A stretch of 50,553 nt of DNA from Candidatus Saccharimonadales bacterium. Lineage in GTDB: Bacteria > Patescibacteriota > Saccharimonadia > Saccharimonadales > JBGTLD01. Shown here in pieces: positions 4,724 through 50,553 of this stretch (its first letter is position 1; every line of letters begins with the position of its first letter). The notes beneath the pieces are model-generated. The model ran no database searches, had not been told where the DNA came from, and worked only from the letters and a program-made list of their open reading frames with translations. A program made the translations under genes and the position numbers. The stretch covers positions 1 through 50,553 of the forward strand of contig JBGTLD010000026.1 in the NCBI GenBank assembly GCA_041744275.1, given 5' to 3'.

Positions 4724-5427
4724 TTCAGTTCAATCTCTTACCAGACATTAAGCTTGCATACATCAGAGCAGCGCGTACGAAACGAATTTTTTTGAGCATT
4801 TCTGTGATTATAACTGTTGTTGTCCTTTTTGTCGTTGGGTTGATTGCAACATCTGTTCTGGTATTCCAGCGGCAACATATTTCAAATCTTGATAACGATA
4901 TTGCCGCAAAAACAAAAGAGCTCACCGAAACACAAGACATTGACAAAATATTAACCGTACAAAATCAACTTAATGTGTTGCCAGGTCTTCATGAGCGAAA
5001 GCCTGACGTCACCAGACTATACGAGTACATTCGGCAAGTTACTCCTGCGAGTGTGACACTAACAGACCTTGACATAGACTTTATTGAAAACACTATGCTA
5101 ATTAGCGGAAAGTCATTGTTGCTTGCTGATATAAATAAGTATGTCGACACGCTCAAATTTACTCGTTATTTTGAGTCATTTCCTATCGTAGATGACATCT
5201 TACAAGAATCATCAGATCCAGTACCAGCATTTAGTTCGGTAGTATTACAAGAGTTTGATAAAAAAGATGGTGATCAATTTGAGTACAGTATATCGCTAAT
5301 CTTTGATCCGGTAATTTTCGAGAACAGCCGAGATATTACATTGTCAGTACCAAATCAAATATCTACTCGTTCCGAAGTTGAGAAACCGGTGTTCGATGCT
5401 ATCAGGAGGGATAATAATGCCGAATAA
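4720..5427 (+). CDS. pilN: PilN-like pilus alignment protein
   Basis: N-terminal QFNLLP motif then TM helix and coiled coil; 4-bp overlap with pilM. Confidence 0.85.
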   Translation: MIQFNLLPDIKLAYIRAARTKRIFLSISVIITVVVLFVVGLIATSVLVFQRQHISNLDNDIAAKTKELTETQDIDKILTVQNQLNVLPGLHERKPDVTRLYEYIRQVTPASVTLTDLDIDFIENTMLISGKSLLLADINKYVDTLKFTRYFESFPIVDDILQESSDPVPAFSSVVLQEFDKKDGDQFEYSISLIFDPVIFENSRDITLSVPNQISTRSEVEKPVFDAIRRDNNAE

Positions 5428-6154
5428 AAAAATATCCGTAAAGCACATACAAATCGACAAGGCTAACCAAGCGGTCATTATTGCGTGTGCTGTTGCATCC
5501 GCTGTTTTAGTACTCGGTGCGTTTACAAGCTATGCGCTACTTAAGCTTAATGCACATCAAGGCCGTGTAATTACTGAAAACGAAAAAACACTCGCCCAAT
5601 TAGTTGAAAATATTGCGATTAAAGAAGACATCGTACAGTCATACAATTTATTCACAACTACTGAAAGAAACGTACTGGGGGGCAGTACCTCTGGTCTGGC
5701 CGAGGGTGATAAAGACGGAGATAATGCTCGACTCGTACTTGATGCACTACCAAGCAAGTATGACTTTCCAGCTCTTGCGACAAGCATCGAAACGCTTTTA
5801 ATAAGAAACAATTTTTCACTGACATCCTTTGACGGGGCAGATGATGAAATCAATCAGCAAAGTCAATTATTGGGTATTCCGATAGCAGATGCCGCTGAAA
5901 CGATTGAAACACCAGAGCCATCAGAAGGTGCAATTCCTGGAGTGATCGAGATTCCATTTGAGGTGACTGTAGAGAAGCTCACCTATCAATCTTCAGAGAT
6001 TCTCCTGGGGCTACTGTATCAGTCTATACGACCGTTTAATATTAATAGAATCCAGTTGTCCGGTTCTGATTCAGAGCTAGACGTTTTAGTGAGCGCTCAT
6101 ACGTACTACCAGCCATCAAAAACCATAAACATTAGTGAGAAGGTCATAGAATGA
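5417..6154 (+). CDS. pilO: PilO-like pilus alignment protein
   Basis: TM helix, coiled coil, then ALP..YDFPAL motif; start placed at ATG 5417 after AGGAGG. Confidence 0.7.
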   Translation: MPNKKISVKHIQIDKANQAVIIACAVASAVLVLGAFTSYALLKLNAHQGRVITENEKTLAQLVENIAIKEDIVQSYNLFTTTERNVLGGSTSGLAEGDKDGDNARLVLDALPSKYDFPALATSIETLLIRNNFSLTSFDGADDEINQQSQLLGIPIADAAETIETPEPSEGAIPGVIEIPFEVTVEKLTYQSSEILLGLLYQSIRPFNINRIQLSGSDSELDVLVSAHTYYQPSKTINISEKVIE

Positions 6155-19409: not shown

Positions 19410-19427
19410 GTCATAGCTCTCTTAAAC

Positions 19428-19463
19428 AAAAGATCCTGTCACATGACAGGATCTTTATTTTTT
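19428..19463 (+). terminator. Intrinsic terminator
   Basis: AAAGATCCTGTCA-c-a-TGACAGGATCTTT plus T run. Confidence 0.8.
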
Positions 19464-19632
19464 TTGCGAAGTTATCTTAGATTGTTTTATTTTTAGCTCC
19501 TTGGTCCATTTACTTAAACAACAGCATCTGACTTAGCAAAACTTAAAACCTATGTTTTAGGTGTAATAATTCTAACTACTTAAACATATCCTTCTTGATA
19601 TAATAGTAATACTAAATACAGGAGAAAATACC

Positions 19633-19698
19633 ATGGGAATTATCTGGACAGTCTTAGCCGTTATCGGACTAATTGTAGTTCTTCAATTTGTATTTTAA
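19633..19698 (+). CDS. 21-aa single-TM small protein MGIIWTVLAVIGLIVVLQFVF
   Basis: AGGAG SD before ATG, TGaTATAAT extended -10 upstream, fully hydrophobic peptide. Confidence 0.65.
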   Translation: MGIIWTVLAVIGLIVVLQFVF

Positions 19699-19769
19699 CC
19701 AGCTGAAGTCGTGTTGCAATAACGCTCTTTTAATTGGTTTGCTAGAGACGTTTGCTCTAAGTTAAATAC

Positions 19770-19803
19770 ATAAAAAGTCTCATCAATTGATGAGACTTTT
19801 TAT
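19770..19803. terminator. Bidirectional terminator-like hairpin
   Basis: Perfect palindrome ATAAAAAGTCTCATCAATTGATGAGACTTTTTAT. Confidence 0.75.
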
Positions 19804-19804
19804 C

Positions 19805-20186
19805 TGGGGCTCGACCGGAGAAAGCACATCTGGCAGCCCATGCTCGAAGCAAGCTCCTGCGCGTGGCTTTGATGACCGAACCGGCAATCTTGCATCTTCA
19901 CTAAAGCGAATCTGCGATCACTGTTTCAAACCGGATCGAAACCTGACCAAATAAAATACCCCTGACAAGCAGAGGCACTTTATTTGGCGGGCTCGACCGG
20001 GTTCGAACCCGAAGAGTGCCTGTGGCACTATGAGTTCACACATAGAATAACCTCTCATTACTAAAAAGCTCATAACGGATCTGTAAATACGATTCCTTTC
20101 ACATAGTGCTGAGGTTCGAATCGCTGAGCTTGCTCAGCGCGCAATCAAAAACCTCCCTAAAAAGGGAGGCTATTGGTTGCGTACTC
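19805..20186 (-). repeat. Two tandem tRNA-Asp-linked units, each ending in a copy of the tRNA 3' end
   Basis: 19985-20009 equals the tRNA-Asp 3' 25 nt; degenerate copy at 19805-19818; units of 180 and 202 bp. Confidence 0.8.
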
Positions 20187-23163: not shown

Positions 23164-23562
23164 CTACAGCGGGTGATAGGCGGTGTAGTGCGTAAAGGCA
23201 ACCGAATCAAACCTCTTGAGTACCGCACGACACCCCACGATTACGTGTTCTCGGCTGATACTTCCCGATTGTTGCCGTAAAAGTTCTGTAATGATCGTGT
23301 CAACAAGTGCCGTAGCGTCGTCTAGGGCGGTTTTTCTATGCCGCAAGCTCTCATAAACGCTTATAAATAAAACATCGCGTGAAAACGGCTCTAAATCATG
23401 CAGAGCTTTGTACTTTATTGATTGTGAGAGGTCTACAGACTCAGTCGTGCTGAACAATGCACCGCACGACTGGCAGTGCCTACGCCGCCAAACACTATTG
23501 GTGCGTTTTTGTGGACGGGAATTCGTAACACGTGTTTCTGACTGACAATAAAGACAAACCAT
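23164..23562 (-). CDS. NrdR-like transcriptional regulator (Zn ribbon plus short ATP-cone-like region)
   Basis: MVCLYC..TRVTNSR..RRRHCQSCGALFSTTE; C-terminal LKRFDSVAFTHY. Confidence 0.75.
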   Translation of the reverse strand: MVCLYCQSETRVTNSRPQKRTNSVWRRRHCQSCGALFSTTESVDLSQSIKYKALHDLEPFSRDVLFISVYESLRHRKTALDDATALVDTIITELLRQQSGSISREHVIVGCRAVLKRFDSVAFTHYTAYHPL

Positions 23563-23720
23563 GACAACATATTGACATGACGCTATTATAAACACAAGTG
23601 GAAAACTTGTGCAGAGCTGTGGGAAACACTTGTTTTCACCTCTCAACTGGAGTTCTTACTCTGTAAATCTTGCAAAAGTGTAGTACTGCGTACATAAGAG
23701 GGGAATAAGCTAAAAAAATA

Positions 23721-23746
23721 AAAACACCGGCCTTATGACCGGTGTT
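23721..23746 (-). terminator. Intrinsic terminator of the small minus-strand ORF
   Basis: AACACCGG..CCGGTGTT hairpin with T run on the minus strand. Confidence 0.7.
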
Positions 23747-23764
23747 AATCACTCGCTGTATCTG

Positions 23765-23878
23765 TTACTTTGTAACAGTTCTGCGTGTGCGTCGTATGCG
23801 ACTGATTGATTTCGATGAAGGATGAAGCTCTTCGTAGAACAGCTTAAATCCTTCGAGCGAATTCTTTTTGGTACTCAA
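23765..23878 (-). CDS. 37-aa basic small protein MSTKKNSLEGFKLFYEELHPSSKSISRIRRTRRTVTK
   Basis: TTG start after GGGAGG SD, promoter upstream and terminator downstream. Confidence 0.6.
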   Translation of the reverse strand: MSTKKNSLEGFKLFYEELHPSSKSISRIRRTRRTVTK

Positions 23879-23908
23879 GTTTGAGCGCCTCCCAAAATTA
23901 ACTTCGCA

Positions 23909-23937
23909 ATCTTACCAGCCATTATCGATACTGTCAA
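23909..23937 (-). promoter_or_regulatory. Sigma70-type promoter
   Basis: TTGACA-17 bp-TAAGAT on the minus strand, with TG extension. Confidence 0.75.
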
Positions 23938-24459
23938 ATGAGAATTCTCACAATTGGTCCACCATAACAGATACAAAGAAATTAGAATAAACAGTCATCA
24001 CAAAATATTGTACGACGTCTTATCTTTCGCTCATTAGGTGTGACACGGAGTGGATACGTATGTATGAAAGGAATTTTATAAATGGAGTACATGTTGCTGA
24101 GATCAGGAATGTTTCGTGCAGATGCGCAGCCTAAGCTGATAGTCAGATACTGATGTAATTAAAGAATGCATTTTCACAATGCATCGTAGGGCCATTTAAA
24201 GTGAGATAACAACCATAATTATAAGAGTGTTCATGATGACTGACTCAAGTATTCATGAACTCATGAATTCCACATGGGTTTAATGATACGTAAAACAAAT
24301 GGTGTTACCGGGTTCGTTATCGCTGAGTGTATCTATGTATGCGTCCAAAGCCAGTTACTTCTTGATTATCATAGTACGCGTATCTGTAAGAATATATGTT
24401 CGTAATCAGTTAAGGACTACTCACTACCTCTGTCACTAAGGTTCGATCTGAATATAAAT

Positions 24460-24536: not shown

Positions 24537-24612
24537 AGAATCGGATCTAACAAGTCAGATTATACCTTGCGTAACACCGCTGTGCAAATACTTGTATCTG
24601 TTTATGACCCAT

Positions 24613-24652
24613 AATATTTCTATTTTACGCTATAGCTTGAAATAGAAATATT
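24613..24652. repeat. 40-bp near-perfect palindrome, copy 1 of the 42-bp repeat family
   Basis: AATATTTCTATTTTACGCTATAGCTTGAAATAGAAATATT; shares TACGCTATAGCTTGAAATAGAAATATTTT with 28228 onward. Confidence 0.9.
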
Positions 24653-24944
24653 TTATTTGGGCTTGGAAAAGAAAGGTATATCAGGAATGATATAAAAATA
24701 TAGTTAAGAATATTGTGTAAAAAACAATATAAAAGTACTAGCATCATACGGCTAGTATGCTATTATTAGTGCAGGTTGAGTTTTGGGAGAGGTTTTACCT
24801 CCCCTTTCCATGCACAATAAAACATCTTTGCGAGAGTGTTTTATTGTGCTTTTGTTTGTTTTGATTTGTGTGTATACTAATTACTAAGTTACTGAAAAAA
24901 GTATTCAGAAAACTAAAACAAACATCTTAAAACCAAAAGAAAAA

Positions 24945-27473
24945 ATGCTACAAAAATCGTTCTCGCAACGAATTAAATCTTTGTACAACCGGCAATTATT
25001 TTTAATAACCGGTGTCTTTTTATTTGTTTTGGTACCATTTATTACAGTTGTATATACATATACGCGCCCAAACCTTTCAACTGTCTCAGCCCAAGTTCCC
25101 GCCACTCTCAACTTCCAAGCTCGCCTTACCACTGGCGCTGGTGCCATCGTCCCCGATGGCACCTACAACGTAGAGTTCAAACTCTACGATGCCCTCACAG
25201 GTGGTACAAACCTCTGGACTGAAACCCGTCTCACTACAGACGCAGCTGCCTTGCGAGTTGTTGTCCGTGCCGGCTACCTCAGCGTTTACCTTGGTGACAA
25301 GACTCCGTTCGGTAGTATCAACTTCGGACAACAACTCTACCTCACCATGAACATTGGTGGTACAGCTGTAACCCCAACCTGGGACGGAGAGATGACACCA
25401 CGACTACGACTCACCAGCGTTCCATATGCCTTCAACACCAACCAACTCAACGGCCGAACCAGTGACCAATTCGTCCAACTTGATCCAGGAGCTACTCCAC
25501 AAACCACTAACACTACCAACAGTGCTATTGCCGTGAACCAGCAGGGGACAGGGAATATACTGCAGTTGCAGAGTAATGGTAACAACGCCCTCTTACTCCA
25601 AGCCAACGGTAACCTGACCATTGACCCGAATGCAGGCACTGATCCAACTTTCTTTATCGATGCAGTCAACAATAGGGTCGGCATCGGCACTGCCACTCCC
25701 GTAGCCCGCCTCTCGCTCGCTGGTAGCGGCTACGGTAACGGACTTGTCTTCAATAATTCACTTAGTACTGCTATTGGCCTAGAAGGCACAAATATACTAT
25801 CTGTTCTCAATAGCAACACAGGAGGCTCCATACAGGTCGCAGCTCAAGACTTTTTCAGAGTCGTTACTAACAGTAGCGAACGTCTCCGTGTTACCCAAGC
25901 CGGCAACGTCGGCATCGGCACTGCCAGCCCTAATTATCCACTTCATGTTCAAAGGAACTTTACTAATACAAATAATACTCACCAGATAGTCGTAGACCCT
26001 ACTTATACCTTTAATACCAACGGTGGTTACTTTAACTCGGGTATACAGTCGTACACAACGCTTGCCGGCACGGCCAATAATACTTTCAATTCATTAGGTA
26101 TGTACGCAGCAATAGACAACAGAAATACTGGCACATCTGCCAATGTAATCGCCGGGGCGTTTGAGGTTTATAACTATGCAGCCAGTGGCACCATTACCAA
26201 GGCTACCGGTGTAAATGGCTTCGTTGGCAACTTTGCCGGCGGCACAATCCAGGATGCTTATGGTGTATGGGCAGGTGTAGATAATGCTTTGGGTACGATT
26301 AATAACGCCTATGGTGTTTATATAGACGGCATACAAGGCACAAATACCTGGGGTCTTTACCAAGCTGATGCTACTGCCGATAACTACTTTGCTGGCAACG
26401 TTGGCATCGGCACTGCCACCCCAGACTTCAAGCTCGACGTCCGAGGCACCACACTCCTCTCGACTGGTGGTACTGCTCCTTTCGGGACTGCTTTTAACGA
26501 TCCAAGTACCGCTCTACTCCTCTATAGTGACTCTTCTTACTCTTATAATCTTATATTCGCTGACGGTTCAGCTGGCGGCTTTGTCGCCAATGATCTAACC
26601 TTCGGCTTTAAAAACCCTTCAGGTATATTCCAGGACGCATTCAGTCTCCTTCAGGAAACAAATGACTCAAATAACGTCGCCACTCGTACCTTCAGTATCT
26701 TTGACCCTGTAGCCGGCGCAAGACGCCTCAGAGTACGAGCAAATGGTAATATCGGCATTGGTGCTGGCGCCGTTACAACTACTCCAATCCCGAGTGTCCT
26801 GGCTGTTAGCGAAGGCCGGATAGGTGAATACATCACTACCCTTAGGAACACCAGTGCGACTGGTAACGGCCTATTGGTAGAAACCCAAGGTAACGCCACC
26901 ACTAACTTCGCTCTTCAAGTCAGAACAAACATTGGGGGTACCCCAATCGATGCGTTTACAGTACGCAATGACGGCCGTGTTGGCACCGGCACCACCACCC
27001 CAGGAGCTCGACTACACGTACAAAACACGAGTGCTGCAACCGTTGGATCTATTATCCAGGGGGCGGCTAGTCAGACGGCAGATTTGTTGCAGATAAAAAA
27101 TAGTGCTGGCGCTAATCTGGTCGTGGTGAATGCTGCTGGAAATGTAACGATTACGAACAATCTGACAGTAAATGGCTCGTTCACCCTGGGCGCTTCTGGC
27201 ACCCCACTTACCCAAATGCGGGTGTATACGCCAACACTTAATCCAGGATCAGTACCAGCAAGCTCGGCTGTAGAGCAGACCTATACTGTTACTGGACTTG
27301 CAGTTGGTGATATCGTGACCATTAATAAGCCTTCGCAAACAGGCAACTGTATAATCGGGAACGTGCGAGTTAGTGCAACGGATACACTTGCAGTTACGTG
27401 GGCAAACCCAGGTGCAATTGTCGCTTGTGACCCACCTTCAGAAACGTACATAGTAATGGCAGTACGGTCATAG
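24945..27473 (+). CDS. Membrane-anchored fibre/adhesin-like surface protein with GNVGIGT repeats
   Basis: N-terminal TM helix, LNFQARL..DGTYNVEFKLYD domain, repeated (G/N)(N/R)VGIGT modules typical of trimeric beta-fibres. Confidence 0.8.
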   Translation: MLQKSFSQRIKSLYNRQLFLITGVFLFVLVPFITVVYTYTRPNLSTVSAQVPATLNFQARLTTGAGAIVPDGTYNVEFKLYDALTGGTNLWTETRLTTDAAALRVVVRAGYLSVYLGDKTPFGSINFGQQLYLTMNIGGTAVTPTWDGEMTPRLRLTSVPYAFNTNQLNGRTSDQFVQLDPGATPQTTNTTNSAIAVNQQGTGNILQLQSNGNNALLLQANGNLTIDPNAGTDPTFFIDAVNNRVGIGTATPVARLSLAGSGYGNGLVFNNSLSTAIGLEGTNILSVLNSNTGGSIQVAAQDFFRVVTNSSERLRVTQAGNVGIGTASPNYPLHVQRNFTNTNNTHQIVVDPTYTFNTNGGYFNSGIQSYTTLAGTANNTFNSLGMYAAIDNRNTGTSANVIAGAFEVYNYAASGTITKATGVNGFVGNFAGGTIQDAYGVWAGVDNALGTINNAYGVYIDGIQGTNTWGLYQADATADNYFAGNVGIGTATPDFKLDVRGTTLLSTGGTAPFGTAFNDPSTALLLYSDSSYSYNLIFADGSAGGFVANDLTFGFKNPSGIFQDAFSLLQETNDSNNVATRTFSIFDPVAGARRLRVRANGNIGIGAGAVTTTPIPSVLAVSEGRIGEYITTLRNTSATGNGLLVETQGNATTNFALQVRTNIGGTPIDAFTVRNDGRVGTGTTTPGARLHVQNTSAATVGSIIQGAASQTADLLQIKNSAGANLVVVNAAGNVTITNNLTVNGSFTLGASGTPLTQMRVYTPTLNPGSVPASSAVEQTYTVTGLAVGDIVTINKPSQTGNCIIGNVRVSATDTLAVTWANPGAIVACDPPSETYIVMAVRS

Positions 27474-27567
27474 TAAAAGTGTCATTTGGAATATATATGT
27501 AGATACAGGGCTTTAATCTCAGGTTAAATCCTTTCACTCCACAACTGTTCATTGCGTGGATCTCTAC

Positions 27568-27609
27568 AAATATTTCTATTTCAAGCTATAGCGTATAATA
27601 AAAATATAA
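27568..27609 (+). repeat. Left 42-bp inverted repeat flanking the PaaX/Cas2-like gene
   Basis: AAATATTTCTATTTCAAGCTATAGCGTATAATAAAAATATAA is the exact reverse complement of 28214-28255. Confidence 0.95.
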
Positions 27610-27641
27610 ATTCCGTACCTTATGAGCACGGAGGCTAACTA

Positions 27642-28214
27642 CTACTTGAGGTTTAGGTGGGCGAATTGACGAAATAGTGCTTGTTCGTTATTTATGAACG
27701 AAGTTTCTATATAGGTAATGTACGACTCAAGCTCGTGGCTTGACGCGATCGTCTCGATGATTTCTTTGCAAGGGAAGGGGTGCAGCCATACGCTGCGCTG
27801 CAGCTGATAACAGCCTAGTTCACGGAGCTTTGAAGTCAGTGCATCTCGCCCGGCCTTGTGCTTTTCAGGTATGTCGTAGAATACGATTCGCCACTGCTTG
27901 TCCCAGCAGTCTGGTTGGTCGATTGCGAGTTCGTCAATGCTCCGCTGCGTTAGCCGCTCCCGAGCCTTGTCTGTAATCTCTAGTCCATGCTCGTAGCTTC
28001 CACTTACAAGGCCGTTGCTACGCATATAGGTTGTGAGCCTTTTAAGTTCGCGCTGCTTTCCGCGATCATCGAGTTTTGAGAAGTAATCTCTCAGCGGCTT
28101 GTCGAGTAGCTGTAGTGCATTCGGAGTAACTAGCATCGTAGCCGCCAGGCCGCCCATAGCTGCAACCCGGAGTAATCCATCAACTATAGGCGATATTTTT
28201 GTGCTTTTTGGCAT
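27642..28214 (-). CDS. PaaX-like protein (wHTH-like N-part plus Cas2/VapD-like ferredoxin domain), 190 aa
   Basis: WDKQWRIVFYDIPEKHKAGRDALTSKLRELGCYQLQRSVW motif; start at ATG 28214 (MPKSTK). Confidence 0.8.
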   Translation of the reverse strand: MPKSTKISPIVDGLLRVAAMGGLAATMLVTPNALQLLDKPLRDYFSKLDDRGKQRELKRLTTYMRSNGLVSGSYEHGLEITDKARERLTQRSIDELAIDQPDCWDKQWRIVFYDIPEKHKAGRDALTSKLRELGCYQLQRSVWLHPFPCKEIIETIASSHELESYITYIETSFINNEQALFRQFAHLNLK

Positions 28215-28255
28215 TATATTTTTATTATACGCTATAGCTTGAAATAGAAATATTT
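28214..28255 (-). repeat. Right 42-bp inverted repeat, abutting the start codon
   Basis: Exact reverse complement of 27568-27609; contains TATAAT 9 nt before the ATG. Confidence 0.95.
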
Positions 28256-28320
28256 TTATTGATATCTGATAGAAGGCGGTGATGTTGCAGAAATCTGAGA
28301 GGTGTTGGTATACTTTATAC

Positions 28321-35087: not shown

Positions 35088-35430
35088 TGTCAGGTTATTG
35101 GCTAGTCGCTTGCCGTAATAGGTGAGAGGAAAGTCCGGGCAGCGCAGGGAAAGACAGTCGCTAACGGCGACCAGGGGCAACCCTAGGGAAAGTGCCACAG
35201 AAACGAAACTGCCAGAATTTATTTTGGTAAGGGTGAAACGAGTGGGGTAAGAGCCCACAGCCTGTATTGGTGACAATATGGGGAGGTAAACCCTGTCTGC
35301 TGCAAGGAGATGTGCTTGCATACGGTTTCCCGCCGCGAGTGCATCATAAAATCCGCTTGAATCTGCGAGCAATCGTAGAACAAGATAGATGATTAGCTAA
35401 AACAGAACCCGGCTTACGGATAATCTGACA
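35088..35430 (+). ncRNA. rnpB: RNase P RNA
   Basis: GAGGAAAGTCCGGGC, AGTGCCACAGAAA, GGGTGAAACG, ACAGAACCCGGCTTA; P1 closing helix TGTCAGGTTAT/ATAATCTGACA. Confidence 0.96.
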
Positions 35431-35433
35431 CAT

Positions 35434-50066: not shown

Positions 50067-50553
<487 letters not shown>

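Follow-up and report, generated by a model that had tools for sequence, protein, structure and literature searches.

The stretch of DNA analysed here, hereafter the window, comprises 50,553 nucleotides (nt) of contig JBGTLD010000026.1 (assembly GCA_041744275.1) from Candidatus Saccharimonadales bacterium, a member of the Patescibacteriota, and it contains a gene for a small PaaX-like protein of 190 amino acids (aa) that is enclosed by two copies of one near-palindromic sequence. The two copies, at 27568-27609 on the plus strand and at 28214-28255 on the minus strand, form an inverted repeat that is exact over 42/42 nt, as an initial annotation of the sequence had stated; none of 100 dinucleotide-preserving shuffles contained any match with up to 3 mismatches, and when mismatches are allowed the repeat grows to 50 nt at 94% identity (27560-27609 / 28214-28263). 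Only one open reading frame (ORF) lies between the 42-nt arms, the 190-aa gene on the minus strand (27642-28214, TAG stop at 27642-27644). The upstream copy, centred on GCTATAGC and presumed to be the promoter/operator, abuts the start codon so closely that the A of the ATG, at 28214, is the final base of the repeat, and this start position is common to the homologues, in which it often falls 1-5 codons past an in-frame stop. Each copy does carry the inward-facing TATAAT that the initial annotation had read from the sequence: the -10-like hexamer of the upstream copy (28229-28224, minus strand) ends 9 nt ahead of the ATG and would yield a near-leaderless transcript, and that of the downstream copy (27594-27599, plus strand) aims antisense into the gene.

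The downstream copy, 27568-27609, lies between the convergent 3' ends of the PaaX-like gene and of an 842-aa gene (24945-27473, plus strand). The 32 nt that separate the stop codon from it include a terminator-like hairpin (27632 to 27612, minus strand) of 8 pairs, 4 of them G-C, the T-rich tail of which consists of the initial bases of the repeat. A third copy in the window was missed by the initial annotation, as was the standing of the unit as a palindromic site and not a one-sided end. This copy, at 24612-24653, is 76 nt from a tRNA-Val gene (minus strand) and about 290 nt from the 842-aa gene, upstream of both, and together with 27568-27609 it brackets the latter; it is 39/42 identical (3 mismatches) and is the best palindrome of the three. 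Folded as RNA, this third copy is strong (-17.6 kcal/mol, z -5.9) whereas the flanking copies are weak (-4.6 kcal/mol, z -0.9, with 35/200 shuffles equally good), showing that the 42/42 match is an identity of copy to copy and not the outcome of hairpin selection. Read from the sequence, there is no target-site duplication outside the 42-nt repeat.

The 190-aa protein (P0001) matches the PaaX_M profile with an E value of 2e-21 (76.3 bits versus a cut-off of 24), in agreement with the earlier assignment to the Cas2-like central domain of PaaX. Cas2 profiles stay below their thresholds on P0001, with 12.5 versus 23.8 bits for Pfam Cas2, 18.5 versus 24.5 bits for TIGR01573, and a sub-threshold Cas2 as the best PADLOC match (E 4.8e-4). 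Since TIGR02277, the full-length PaaX equivalog, scores only 24.2 bits versus a cut-off of 264.55, the protein is not PaaX proper and we file it as a truncated variant of the PaaX kind; indeed, it ends about 14 residues past PaaX_M, and the C-terminal PaaX domain is absent. Of the aligned family members, 47/47 contain PaaX_M and 20/47 match Cas2 at E<=0.01. The Pfam PaaX N-terminal domain is found in 0/47 at E<=0.01; the N-terminal region nevertheless aligns to the winged helix of E. coli PaaX, as hhalign matches residues 54-172 with residues 54-172 of that protein at 87% probability, a region that spans the last helix and the wing of the winged-helix domain and then the middle domain. Solved structures returned, by sequence, weak Cas2, TubR, and MarR-like matches at E>=0.026.

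Each of seven residues (W104, D105, W108, D114, R123, S141, and P146) recurs in at least 148 of 151 sequences. The WDxxW, S, and P motifs are common to the family and E. coli PaaX, whereas the F-D-I-P-E motif and R123 are common to the family and Cas2, and E. coli PaaX has SEGL at that place. D114, which aligns with the beta-1 Asp of Cas2 and is kept in 149/151 sequences, hints at a role beyond dimerisation. Residues ~10-38 of the family are Gly/Ala-rich and end in a conserved (A/L)PN motif; a 19-residue Kyte-Doolittle window reaches at least 1.6 there in 32/47 members, with maxima of 1.54 for P0001 and 1.09 for E. coli PaaX, and the stretch is absent from a 160-aa subfamily. The stretch may represent either the first helices of the domain, in a buried position, or an anchor in the membrane. 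Of the genomes sampled, 43/201 in the order (E<=1e-3) and 100/401 in the phylum (E<=1e-10) encode homologues, at 1 to at least 8 per genome, and a profile search retrieved 1127 cluster representatives (50% identity) at E<=1e-30.

Bracketing by palindromes is a property of the whole family. For each gene, we compared the 100 nt that precede the start with the 100 nt that follow the stop and scored their best ungapped repeat; an inverted-repeat score of at least 10 was reached by 39/50 loci of the order versus 0/66 neighbouring control ORFs (maximum, 9), by 43/50 when direct repeats were also counted, and by 23/28 loci of other lineages of the phylum. The expectation voiced with the initial annotation, that homologues would be flanked by palindromic repeats of their own, is thus borne out, with 62/78 loci, taken from genomes assembled independently, showing the flanked architecture. 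These palindromes measure 25-52 bp and vary in sequence by locus, with cores such as GCTATAGC, GCGATCGC, CGGCCG, CACGTG, CATATG, CCATGG, and GCAATTGC, and paralogues inside one genome carry different palindromes. Under a strict centre-aligned criterion (identity between copies of 70% or more across 24 nt or more), 45/78 loci could be scored for the relative orientation of the two copies and split into 15 inverted, 15 direct, and 15 indistinguishable pairs, a random distribution as expected for a symmetric binding site.

In these loci, the site centre lies a median of 27 nt (interquartile range, 19-37) ahead of the ATG and, at the other end, a median of 21 nt (interquartile range, 18-42) past the stop, and the two centres are spaced by a median of 626 nt. 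Many loci have repeats that directly adjoin the ORF, their edges falling -6 to +2 nt from the ATG and the stop. Of the two copies, it is frequently the downstream one that is the better palindrome, and its overlap with the stop codon is common. A -10-like hexamer 6-7 nt before the start was found in 20/78 homologues versus 10/139 control ORFs, and Shine-Dalgarno-like motifs were rarer in the homologues (10/78 versus 34/139); together, these two features fit transcripts with little or no leader.

In the genome of origin (859,789 bases, 95.5% complete), a profile built from the copies recovered exactly 7 sites at E<=1.4e-9 (E 1.9e-10 by nhmmer for the upstream copy), the next match having an E value of 0.18. 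The five sites beyond the flanking pair, namely, the third copy in the window and four on other contigs, had likewise escaped the initial annotation. When aligned by their centres, the seven sites define a two-fold symmetric element of about 44 bp with a GC-containing core around GCTATAGC and AT-rich arms. According to the ORF maps, all seven are intergenic, three between divergent, three between tandem, and one between convergent genes, the sole convergent site being the copy downstream of the PaaX-like gene. Two pairs of sites bracket other genes, the 842-aa gene in the window and two genes on contig C30. The genes that adjoin the sites (encoding a cyclase, an epimerase, a coiled-coil protein, an MgtE-like protein, TatD, MetRS, tRNA-Val, ThrS, and the 842-aa protein) have no common theme. 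The seven diverged copies differ by 38 changes in one arm and by 3 symmetric changes. The genome holds no paralogue or second copy of the PaaX-like gene (next tblastn match, E 0.65).

Unspaced palindromes of comparable quality number 6 genome-wide versus 0 in three shuffles, and 2 of the 6 belong to the seven-site family. Of note, a perfect 34-bp unspaced palindrome of the same build (specific arms, an A/T run, and a CAATTG core) lies in the window at 19769-19803, beside a tRNA-Asp gene in a stretch without ORFs of at least 80 aa (19410-20186), and it has no cognate PaaX_M gene in this genome.

Dispersed copies are found in other genomes as well, the counts in six genomes being 7, 17, at least 11, 5, 4, and 3; among these, G038, G149, and G027 have 4, 5, and 3 copies of their own palindromes, respectively. 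All 17 copies in G075 are intergenic (6 divergent, 6 tandem, and 5 convergent), two of them flank the only PaaX_M gene of that genome, and most of those beside gene ends lie 9-35 nt past the stop codon. Among 201 genomes, the 14-mer core TACGCTATAGCGTA occurs at least three times, with up to 1 mismatch, only in G000 (3), G075 (17), and G121 (11), each of which has a homologue bearing this core; the remaining genomes have at most 2 copies, and a reversed control pattern never occurred more than once per genome. Furthermore, two palindromes within one genus were each found only in the genome that carries the corresponding gene. No exact match to the 32-mer of the window or to that of G075 was found among metagenome contigs. 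G121 (91% complete) also holds a second family, 8 copies of a 44-bp palindrome with the same 14-nt core and different arms (L116-L119, L121-L124), several of which lie at contig ends; 0 of the 3 PaaX_M genes found in this genome are flanked by it.

The comparison of G075 with its relative G585 gives an indication of how such sites turn over. The 36-mer of G585 is identical to that of G075, though their coding DNA is just 66-78% identical. One G585 copy occupies the place orthologous to a G075 copy, between a gene for an XerC-like recombinase and ndk; another follows ligA, where G075 has a different gene and no palindrome. We conclude that the sequence is held tightly while its positions turn over. 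No PaaX_M match was found in G585, the assembly of which is fragmented (about 600 kb, completeness unknown). Separately, an ~80-nt non-coding element downstream of ligA, which may be a small RNA, is conserved at 77-78% identity between two related genomes (L134, ~4998-5090; L144, ~5601-5690), in intergenic DNA that is otherwise unalignable between them.

Family members sit beside genes of housekeeping function, namely, yidC/jag, aminoacyl-tRNA synthetases, recO, mnmA, ndk, and the gene for the XerC-like recombinase. Neighbourhood labels mapped on the family tree require 14 changes versus a shuffled mean of 20.2, with 0/200 shuffles as low, and this clustering points to mainly vertical descent. 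Some relocation over evolutionary time is nonetheless supported. In 5 genomes, family members from different lineages occupy the slot between the XerC-like gene and ndk, and constraining this group, which was defined ahead of tree building, to one clade is rejected (delta lnL 238, p-AU 1.9e-58). G075 and G585 have only a solo palindrome in that slot, and a sister of the G075 gene (100% SH-aLRT) occupies it in another genome. In addition, two genes of the same genus, 76% identical in DNA and 78% in protein, have unrelated flanks and unrelated palindromes. Across these loci, the slot presents itself either with a PaaX_M gene and its palindromes or with a solo palindrome (L012, L017, L045, L053, and L055; L074 in G075; L142 in G585). 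Of the mobile unit suggested in the initial annotation, this occasional relocation is what stands, set against neighbourhoods that are mostly inherited vertically. Its suggestion of an invertible unit is unlikely as far as a functional flip-switch is concerned, because inversion between the arms would recreate the same arrangement.

E. coli PaaX offers the closest framework for interpretation. As described in PMC9493321, it combines a winged helix with a dimerisation motif and a C-terminal domain, the C-terminal part binding the inducer phenylacetyl-CoA; its operator is the 39-bp sequence TGATTC-N27-GAATCA, and it represses its own promoter by hindering RNA polymerase. The same source cites a structure of a PaaX homologue from Jannaschia (PDB 3L09). 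In our protein, as in E. coli PaaX, a Cas2-like middle domain comes after a winged helix, which is putative in our case, and both proteins are associated with a long two-fold symmetric site, of about 39 bp for E. coli PaaX as given in that source and of 36-46 bp, with distinct outer arms, here. On these grounds, a dimer sitting on a 36-46-bp symmetric site over its own promoter is the most economical reading of the locus. The differences are several: our protein has 190 aa versus 316 and is without the C-terminal domain; it retains an FDIPE/R motif of the Cas2 type, which is missing in E. coli PaaX; it has the additional N-terminal hydrophobic stretch; the whole site is palindromic, with a second copy after the stop and up to 17 dispersed copies; and no paa genes were noticed near the sites examined, the genome as a whole not having been searched for them.

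Our current working hypothesis, which we favour only tentatively, is that a mini-PaaX dimer binds these long palindromes and represses its own near-leaderless promoter, with the downstream copy acting as a second operator and as a terminator tail. The mini-PaaX would amount to a PaaX repressor reduced to its winged helix and its Cas2-like dimerisation module, the C-terminal domain being absent, and its dimer would contact a palindromic site of ~36-46 bp whose outer half-sites lie about three helical turns apart, like those of the E. coli PaaX operator. The upstream copy, centred ~17-30 nt ahead of the near-leaderless start, would cover the core promoter, so that binding would repress the gene. 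The copy just past the stop could serve as a second, often more perfect operator, either as the partner in a loop or as a roadblock, and in this window it may also provide the T-tail of the terminator. The few further intergenic copies would be additional binding sites at positions that are not conserved between genomes, and concerted, symmetric change would maintain both palindromy and copy-to-copy identity. The locus anatomy, its generality in the family, the homology, the site counts, and the intergenic positions are observed, whereas binding, repression, and looping are what the sequences suggest. The self-recognising cassette of the initial annotation survives in this autoregulated version, which now leads, and not in its IS-like form. 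A gene set between two cognate palindromes, with solo copies elsewhere, is a rule that is new here.

Repressors with auxiliary operators are classically represented by lac O1/O2 and gal OE/OI. These systems resemble the present one in that a promoter-proximal operator is joined by a second one a few hundred bp downstream, which makes looping possible. Unlike in those systems, the second site here lies just past the stop codon across the family, and the sites are ~40 bp long and are also found elsewhere in the genome without conserved targets.

Several observations weigh against autoregulation by a dimer as a full account. First, it leaves unexplained the up to 13 exact copies of a site, since the 17 copies in G075 are of a perfect 36-bp palindrome and 13/17 are identical over all 36 nt, as well as the 5/17 copies in convergent intergenic regions, which offer no promoter for it to regulate. 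It does not account for the lack of a conserved target either: when 74 site-adjacent ORFs from five genomes were compared, homology across genomes was confined to the PaaX_M genes, so that no conserved regulon was found. The variant copies outside the genome of origin show 14 symmetric double changes versus ~18 one-arm changes (in counts that include duplicates from overlapping loci in the G038 rows and omit one G149 copy), and symmetric double changes are not explained by a protein dimer alone. Equally unaccounted for are the palindromy through the very centre of the site, where the E. coli operator has N27, and the near-invariant Cas2-type D114, in place of which E. coli PaaX has a Glu and no DIPE motif. 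Finally, palindrome and protein similarity show no correlation overall (Spearman -0.01 for the arms, with 118/200 permutations as high, and 0.09 for the core, with 18/200), and the proteins of L098 and L109, of the same genus, 78% identical and with near-identical putative recognition helices, have unrelated palindromes. A consensus sigma-70 scan called no promoter in either copy of the repeat, the -35 region being poor. By eye, several close pairs, namely, L006/L007, L037/L038, L039/L041, L028/L045, and L011/L013, do share outer-arm words, unlike L098/L109, and L015 and L095 have a 12-nt arm in common with N-terminal domains just 17% identical. The observations left unexplained fit palindromes that are copied or homogenised, and also a cassette that relocates between palindromic slots.

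The first of these alternatives, a system like REP/RAYT, is in our view doubtful. In such a system, the protein would be a Cas2-fold, metal-dependent nuclease or strand-transfer enzyme that recognises its flanking palindromes as hairpins or cruciforms and copies or homogenises them, with the dispersed copies as non-autonomous offspring. The parallel in layout is close: according to PMC2817692 and a bioRxiv preprint, RAYT genes are flanked by their own REPs, just as the genes are here. The likeness extends to a single-copy, mostly vertically inherited gene whose own extragenic palindrome is dispersed in intergenic DNA and to the pairing of different paralogues with different palindromes. The copies described above behave as such offspring might, being sharp-bordered, exact in the case of G075, present in every intergenic type, variable in number from 3 to 17, and devoid of neighbours conserved across genomes; of two related genomes, one has a site that the other lacks, and pairing is preserved by symmetric compensating changes. 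The near-invariance of D114, R123, and S141, which are shared with Cas2, and the matches of Cas2 profiles to 20/47 members would suit an enzymatic role. Fold and chemistry are, however, unrelated to those of RAYTs: neither HUH/Tyr nor any other known transposase domain was found in P0001 or the family in scans of Pfam, PADLOC, and PHROGs. The copies, moreover, are far fewer than the more than 100, or hundreds, described as typical of REPs, the flanking copies are not consistently inverted, and the palindromes are unspaced and perfect over 36-46 bp, whereas REPs are described as palindromes of 20-40 bp, those of Stenotrophomonas having a GT(A/G)G head and a non-complementary middle. In the genome of origin itself, the flanking copies form only the weak hairpin noted above, and the seven copies have diverged with 38 one-arm versus 3 symmetric changes.

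A broader form of the same idea, which we likewise regard as doubtful, is that of a Cas2-fold family of the Candidate Phyla Radiation (CPR) in which each member maintains, copies, or recombines its own palindrome, giving the layout of repeat, gene, and repeat and seeding the solo copies, as a REP/RAYT- or cassette-like element devoid of Cas1 and of known transposases. The resemblance to Cas2, seen in the sequence, comprises the ferredoxin-like fold, the beta-1 Asp, the alpha-1 Arg, and the Q.S(V)(F/W) motif, and the placement of a unit between repeat copies that are partly palindromic and similar in length recalls CRISPR. In contrast to CRISPR systems, the proteins fall below all Cas2 thresholds, the "spacer" is the gene itself, and the repeats are dispersed and not arrayed. 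A CRISPR remnant is rejected, as there is no Cas1 match in the genome and no tandem repeat array in the window; the initial annotation had noted neither cas1 nor a CRISPR array in the window.

Relocation of the whole unit as a cassette is an unlikely explanation. On this view, the ORF and its two flanking palindromes would travel from one palindromic slot to another, by recombination between palindrome copies or by target-duplicating insertion into a palindrome, and solo palindromes would be empty sites or scars. Close homologues with unrelated palindromes and a slot used by several lineages favour this proposal and the REP/RAYT-like one alike. The exact abutment of repeats and ORF in many loci, including the window, where the repeat ends on the A of the ATG, speaks for the cassette, as do the XerC-like/ndk slot with its rejected single clade and with its solo palindrome in G075 and G585, the sister gene of G075 found in that slot elsewhere, the pair of same-genus genes with 76% DNA identity and unrelated surroundings, and the patchy distribution over the order and the phylum at 1 to at least 8 copies per genome. 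Against it stand the clustering of slot labels on the tree and the absence of near-identical paralogues in any genome examined. Furthermore, target duplication or conservative integration would be expected to leave direct repeats, whereas the window has an inverted pair and the family 15 inverted to 15 direct, the palindromes of one genome were not found as empty targets in two same-genus relatives, and no target-site duplication is seen beyond the repeat.

An action on RNA is very unlikely. Here the palindromes would be hairpins in transcripts, stabilisers or terminators at the 3' end and regulatory elements at the 5' end, bound or cut by a Cas2/VapD-like protein that controls its own mRNA and a few others. 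One could point to the downstream copies, which in many loci are more perfect and begin at the stop codon, to the position of most gene-end copies of G075 at 9-35 nt past the stop, to the symmetric compensating changes, and to the strong fold of the third copy in the window (z -5.9). If our reading of the -10 hexamer is right, though, the upstream copy is not transcribed with the gene; 6/17 copies in G075 lie between divergent genes; the flanking copies in the window fold weakly; and the N-terminal half of the protein aligns to a DNA-binding winged helix.

Equally hard to favour, and perhaps harder, is a membrane-tethered DNA anchor comparable to Noc or to a centromere-binding protein, in which the N-terminal hydrophobic stretch would hold the dimer at the membrane and the sites would tie loci to it, regulation of neighbouring genes not being the main role. 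The hydropathy of residues ~10-38 in 32/47 members compared with E. coli PaaX fits such an anchor, as do sites that are few, near-identical, scattered, and independent of gene orientation; a match to the profile of the centromere-binding protein TubR is weak and not significant (E 0.31). The stretch coincides, however, with the first helices of the PaaX winged helix and may be buried core, P0001 itself reaches only 1.54, and the 160-aa subfamily is without it.

An assembly artefact or a chance repeat deserves next to no credence and is rejected. Among public runs, a single DNA run and no RNA run is listed as containing this stretch. An independent assembly (Logan) of that run does come in 3 pieces, ending at 27597, 28255, and 28226, so that the contigs stop at both repeats with none bridging, the gene is partly uncovered, and the orientation of the inner segment is without independent confirmation; the repeat is nonetheless present at three contig ends, matched by 0/100 shuffles, and part of an architecture seen in 62/78 loci of independently assembled genomes. 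A classical insertion sequence (IS) with terminal inverted repeats, the form given to the locus in the initial annotation, is likewise rejected: there is no second copy of the gene, the site is a stand-alone palindrome with five further copies, and the orientation of the flanking copies is split 15/15/15. A defence or phage protein finds no more than the sub-threshold Cas2 matches in PADLOC and nothing in PHROGs. Avoidance of the core as a restriction site is also rejected, GCTATAGC being seen 20 times versus 12.3 expected.

To our knowledge, few regulators are known in the ultra-small bacteria of this phylum, which have small genomes. Full-text literature, with most subscription journals and supplements outside its coverage, yielded no description of PaaX-like proteins or of such palindromes in these bacteria and no paper naming both "PaaX" and "Patescibacteria". 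If the cognate site can indeed be read from the flanks of each member, the family would provide a ready map of protein-DNA pairs for organisms that can barely be cultured, and engineers would gain a collection of mutually orthogonal operators of 40 bp with their repressors. Should these proteins prove able to spread or recombine the palindromes, they would represent a second, independent invention of the REP/RAYT lifestyle and a functional link of the Cas2 fold to palindromic repeats outside CRISPR. A palindrome-maintaining Cas2-fold family in the CPR would then be a free-living relative of the CRISPR adaptation protein, acting on palindromic repeats.

Other features of the window are noted here for completeness. 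The 842-aa protein encoded at 24945-27473 is rich in Gly, Asn, and Thr and has an N-terminal hydrophobic segment and no Pfam match. Some 800 bases (23647-24459) between a 160-aa gene (23164-23646, minus strand) and tRNA-Val contain no ORF of at least 60 aa and match no Rfam family at gathering score. A complete bacterial RNase P RNA (class A) lies at 35090-35432, and the first ~410 positions of a 16S rRNA gene, cut off by the end of the window, occupy 50067-50553.

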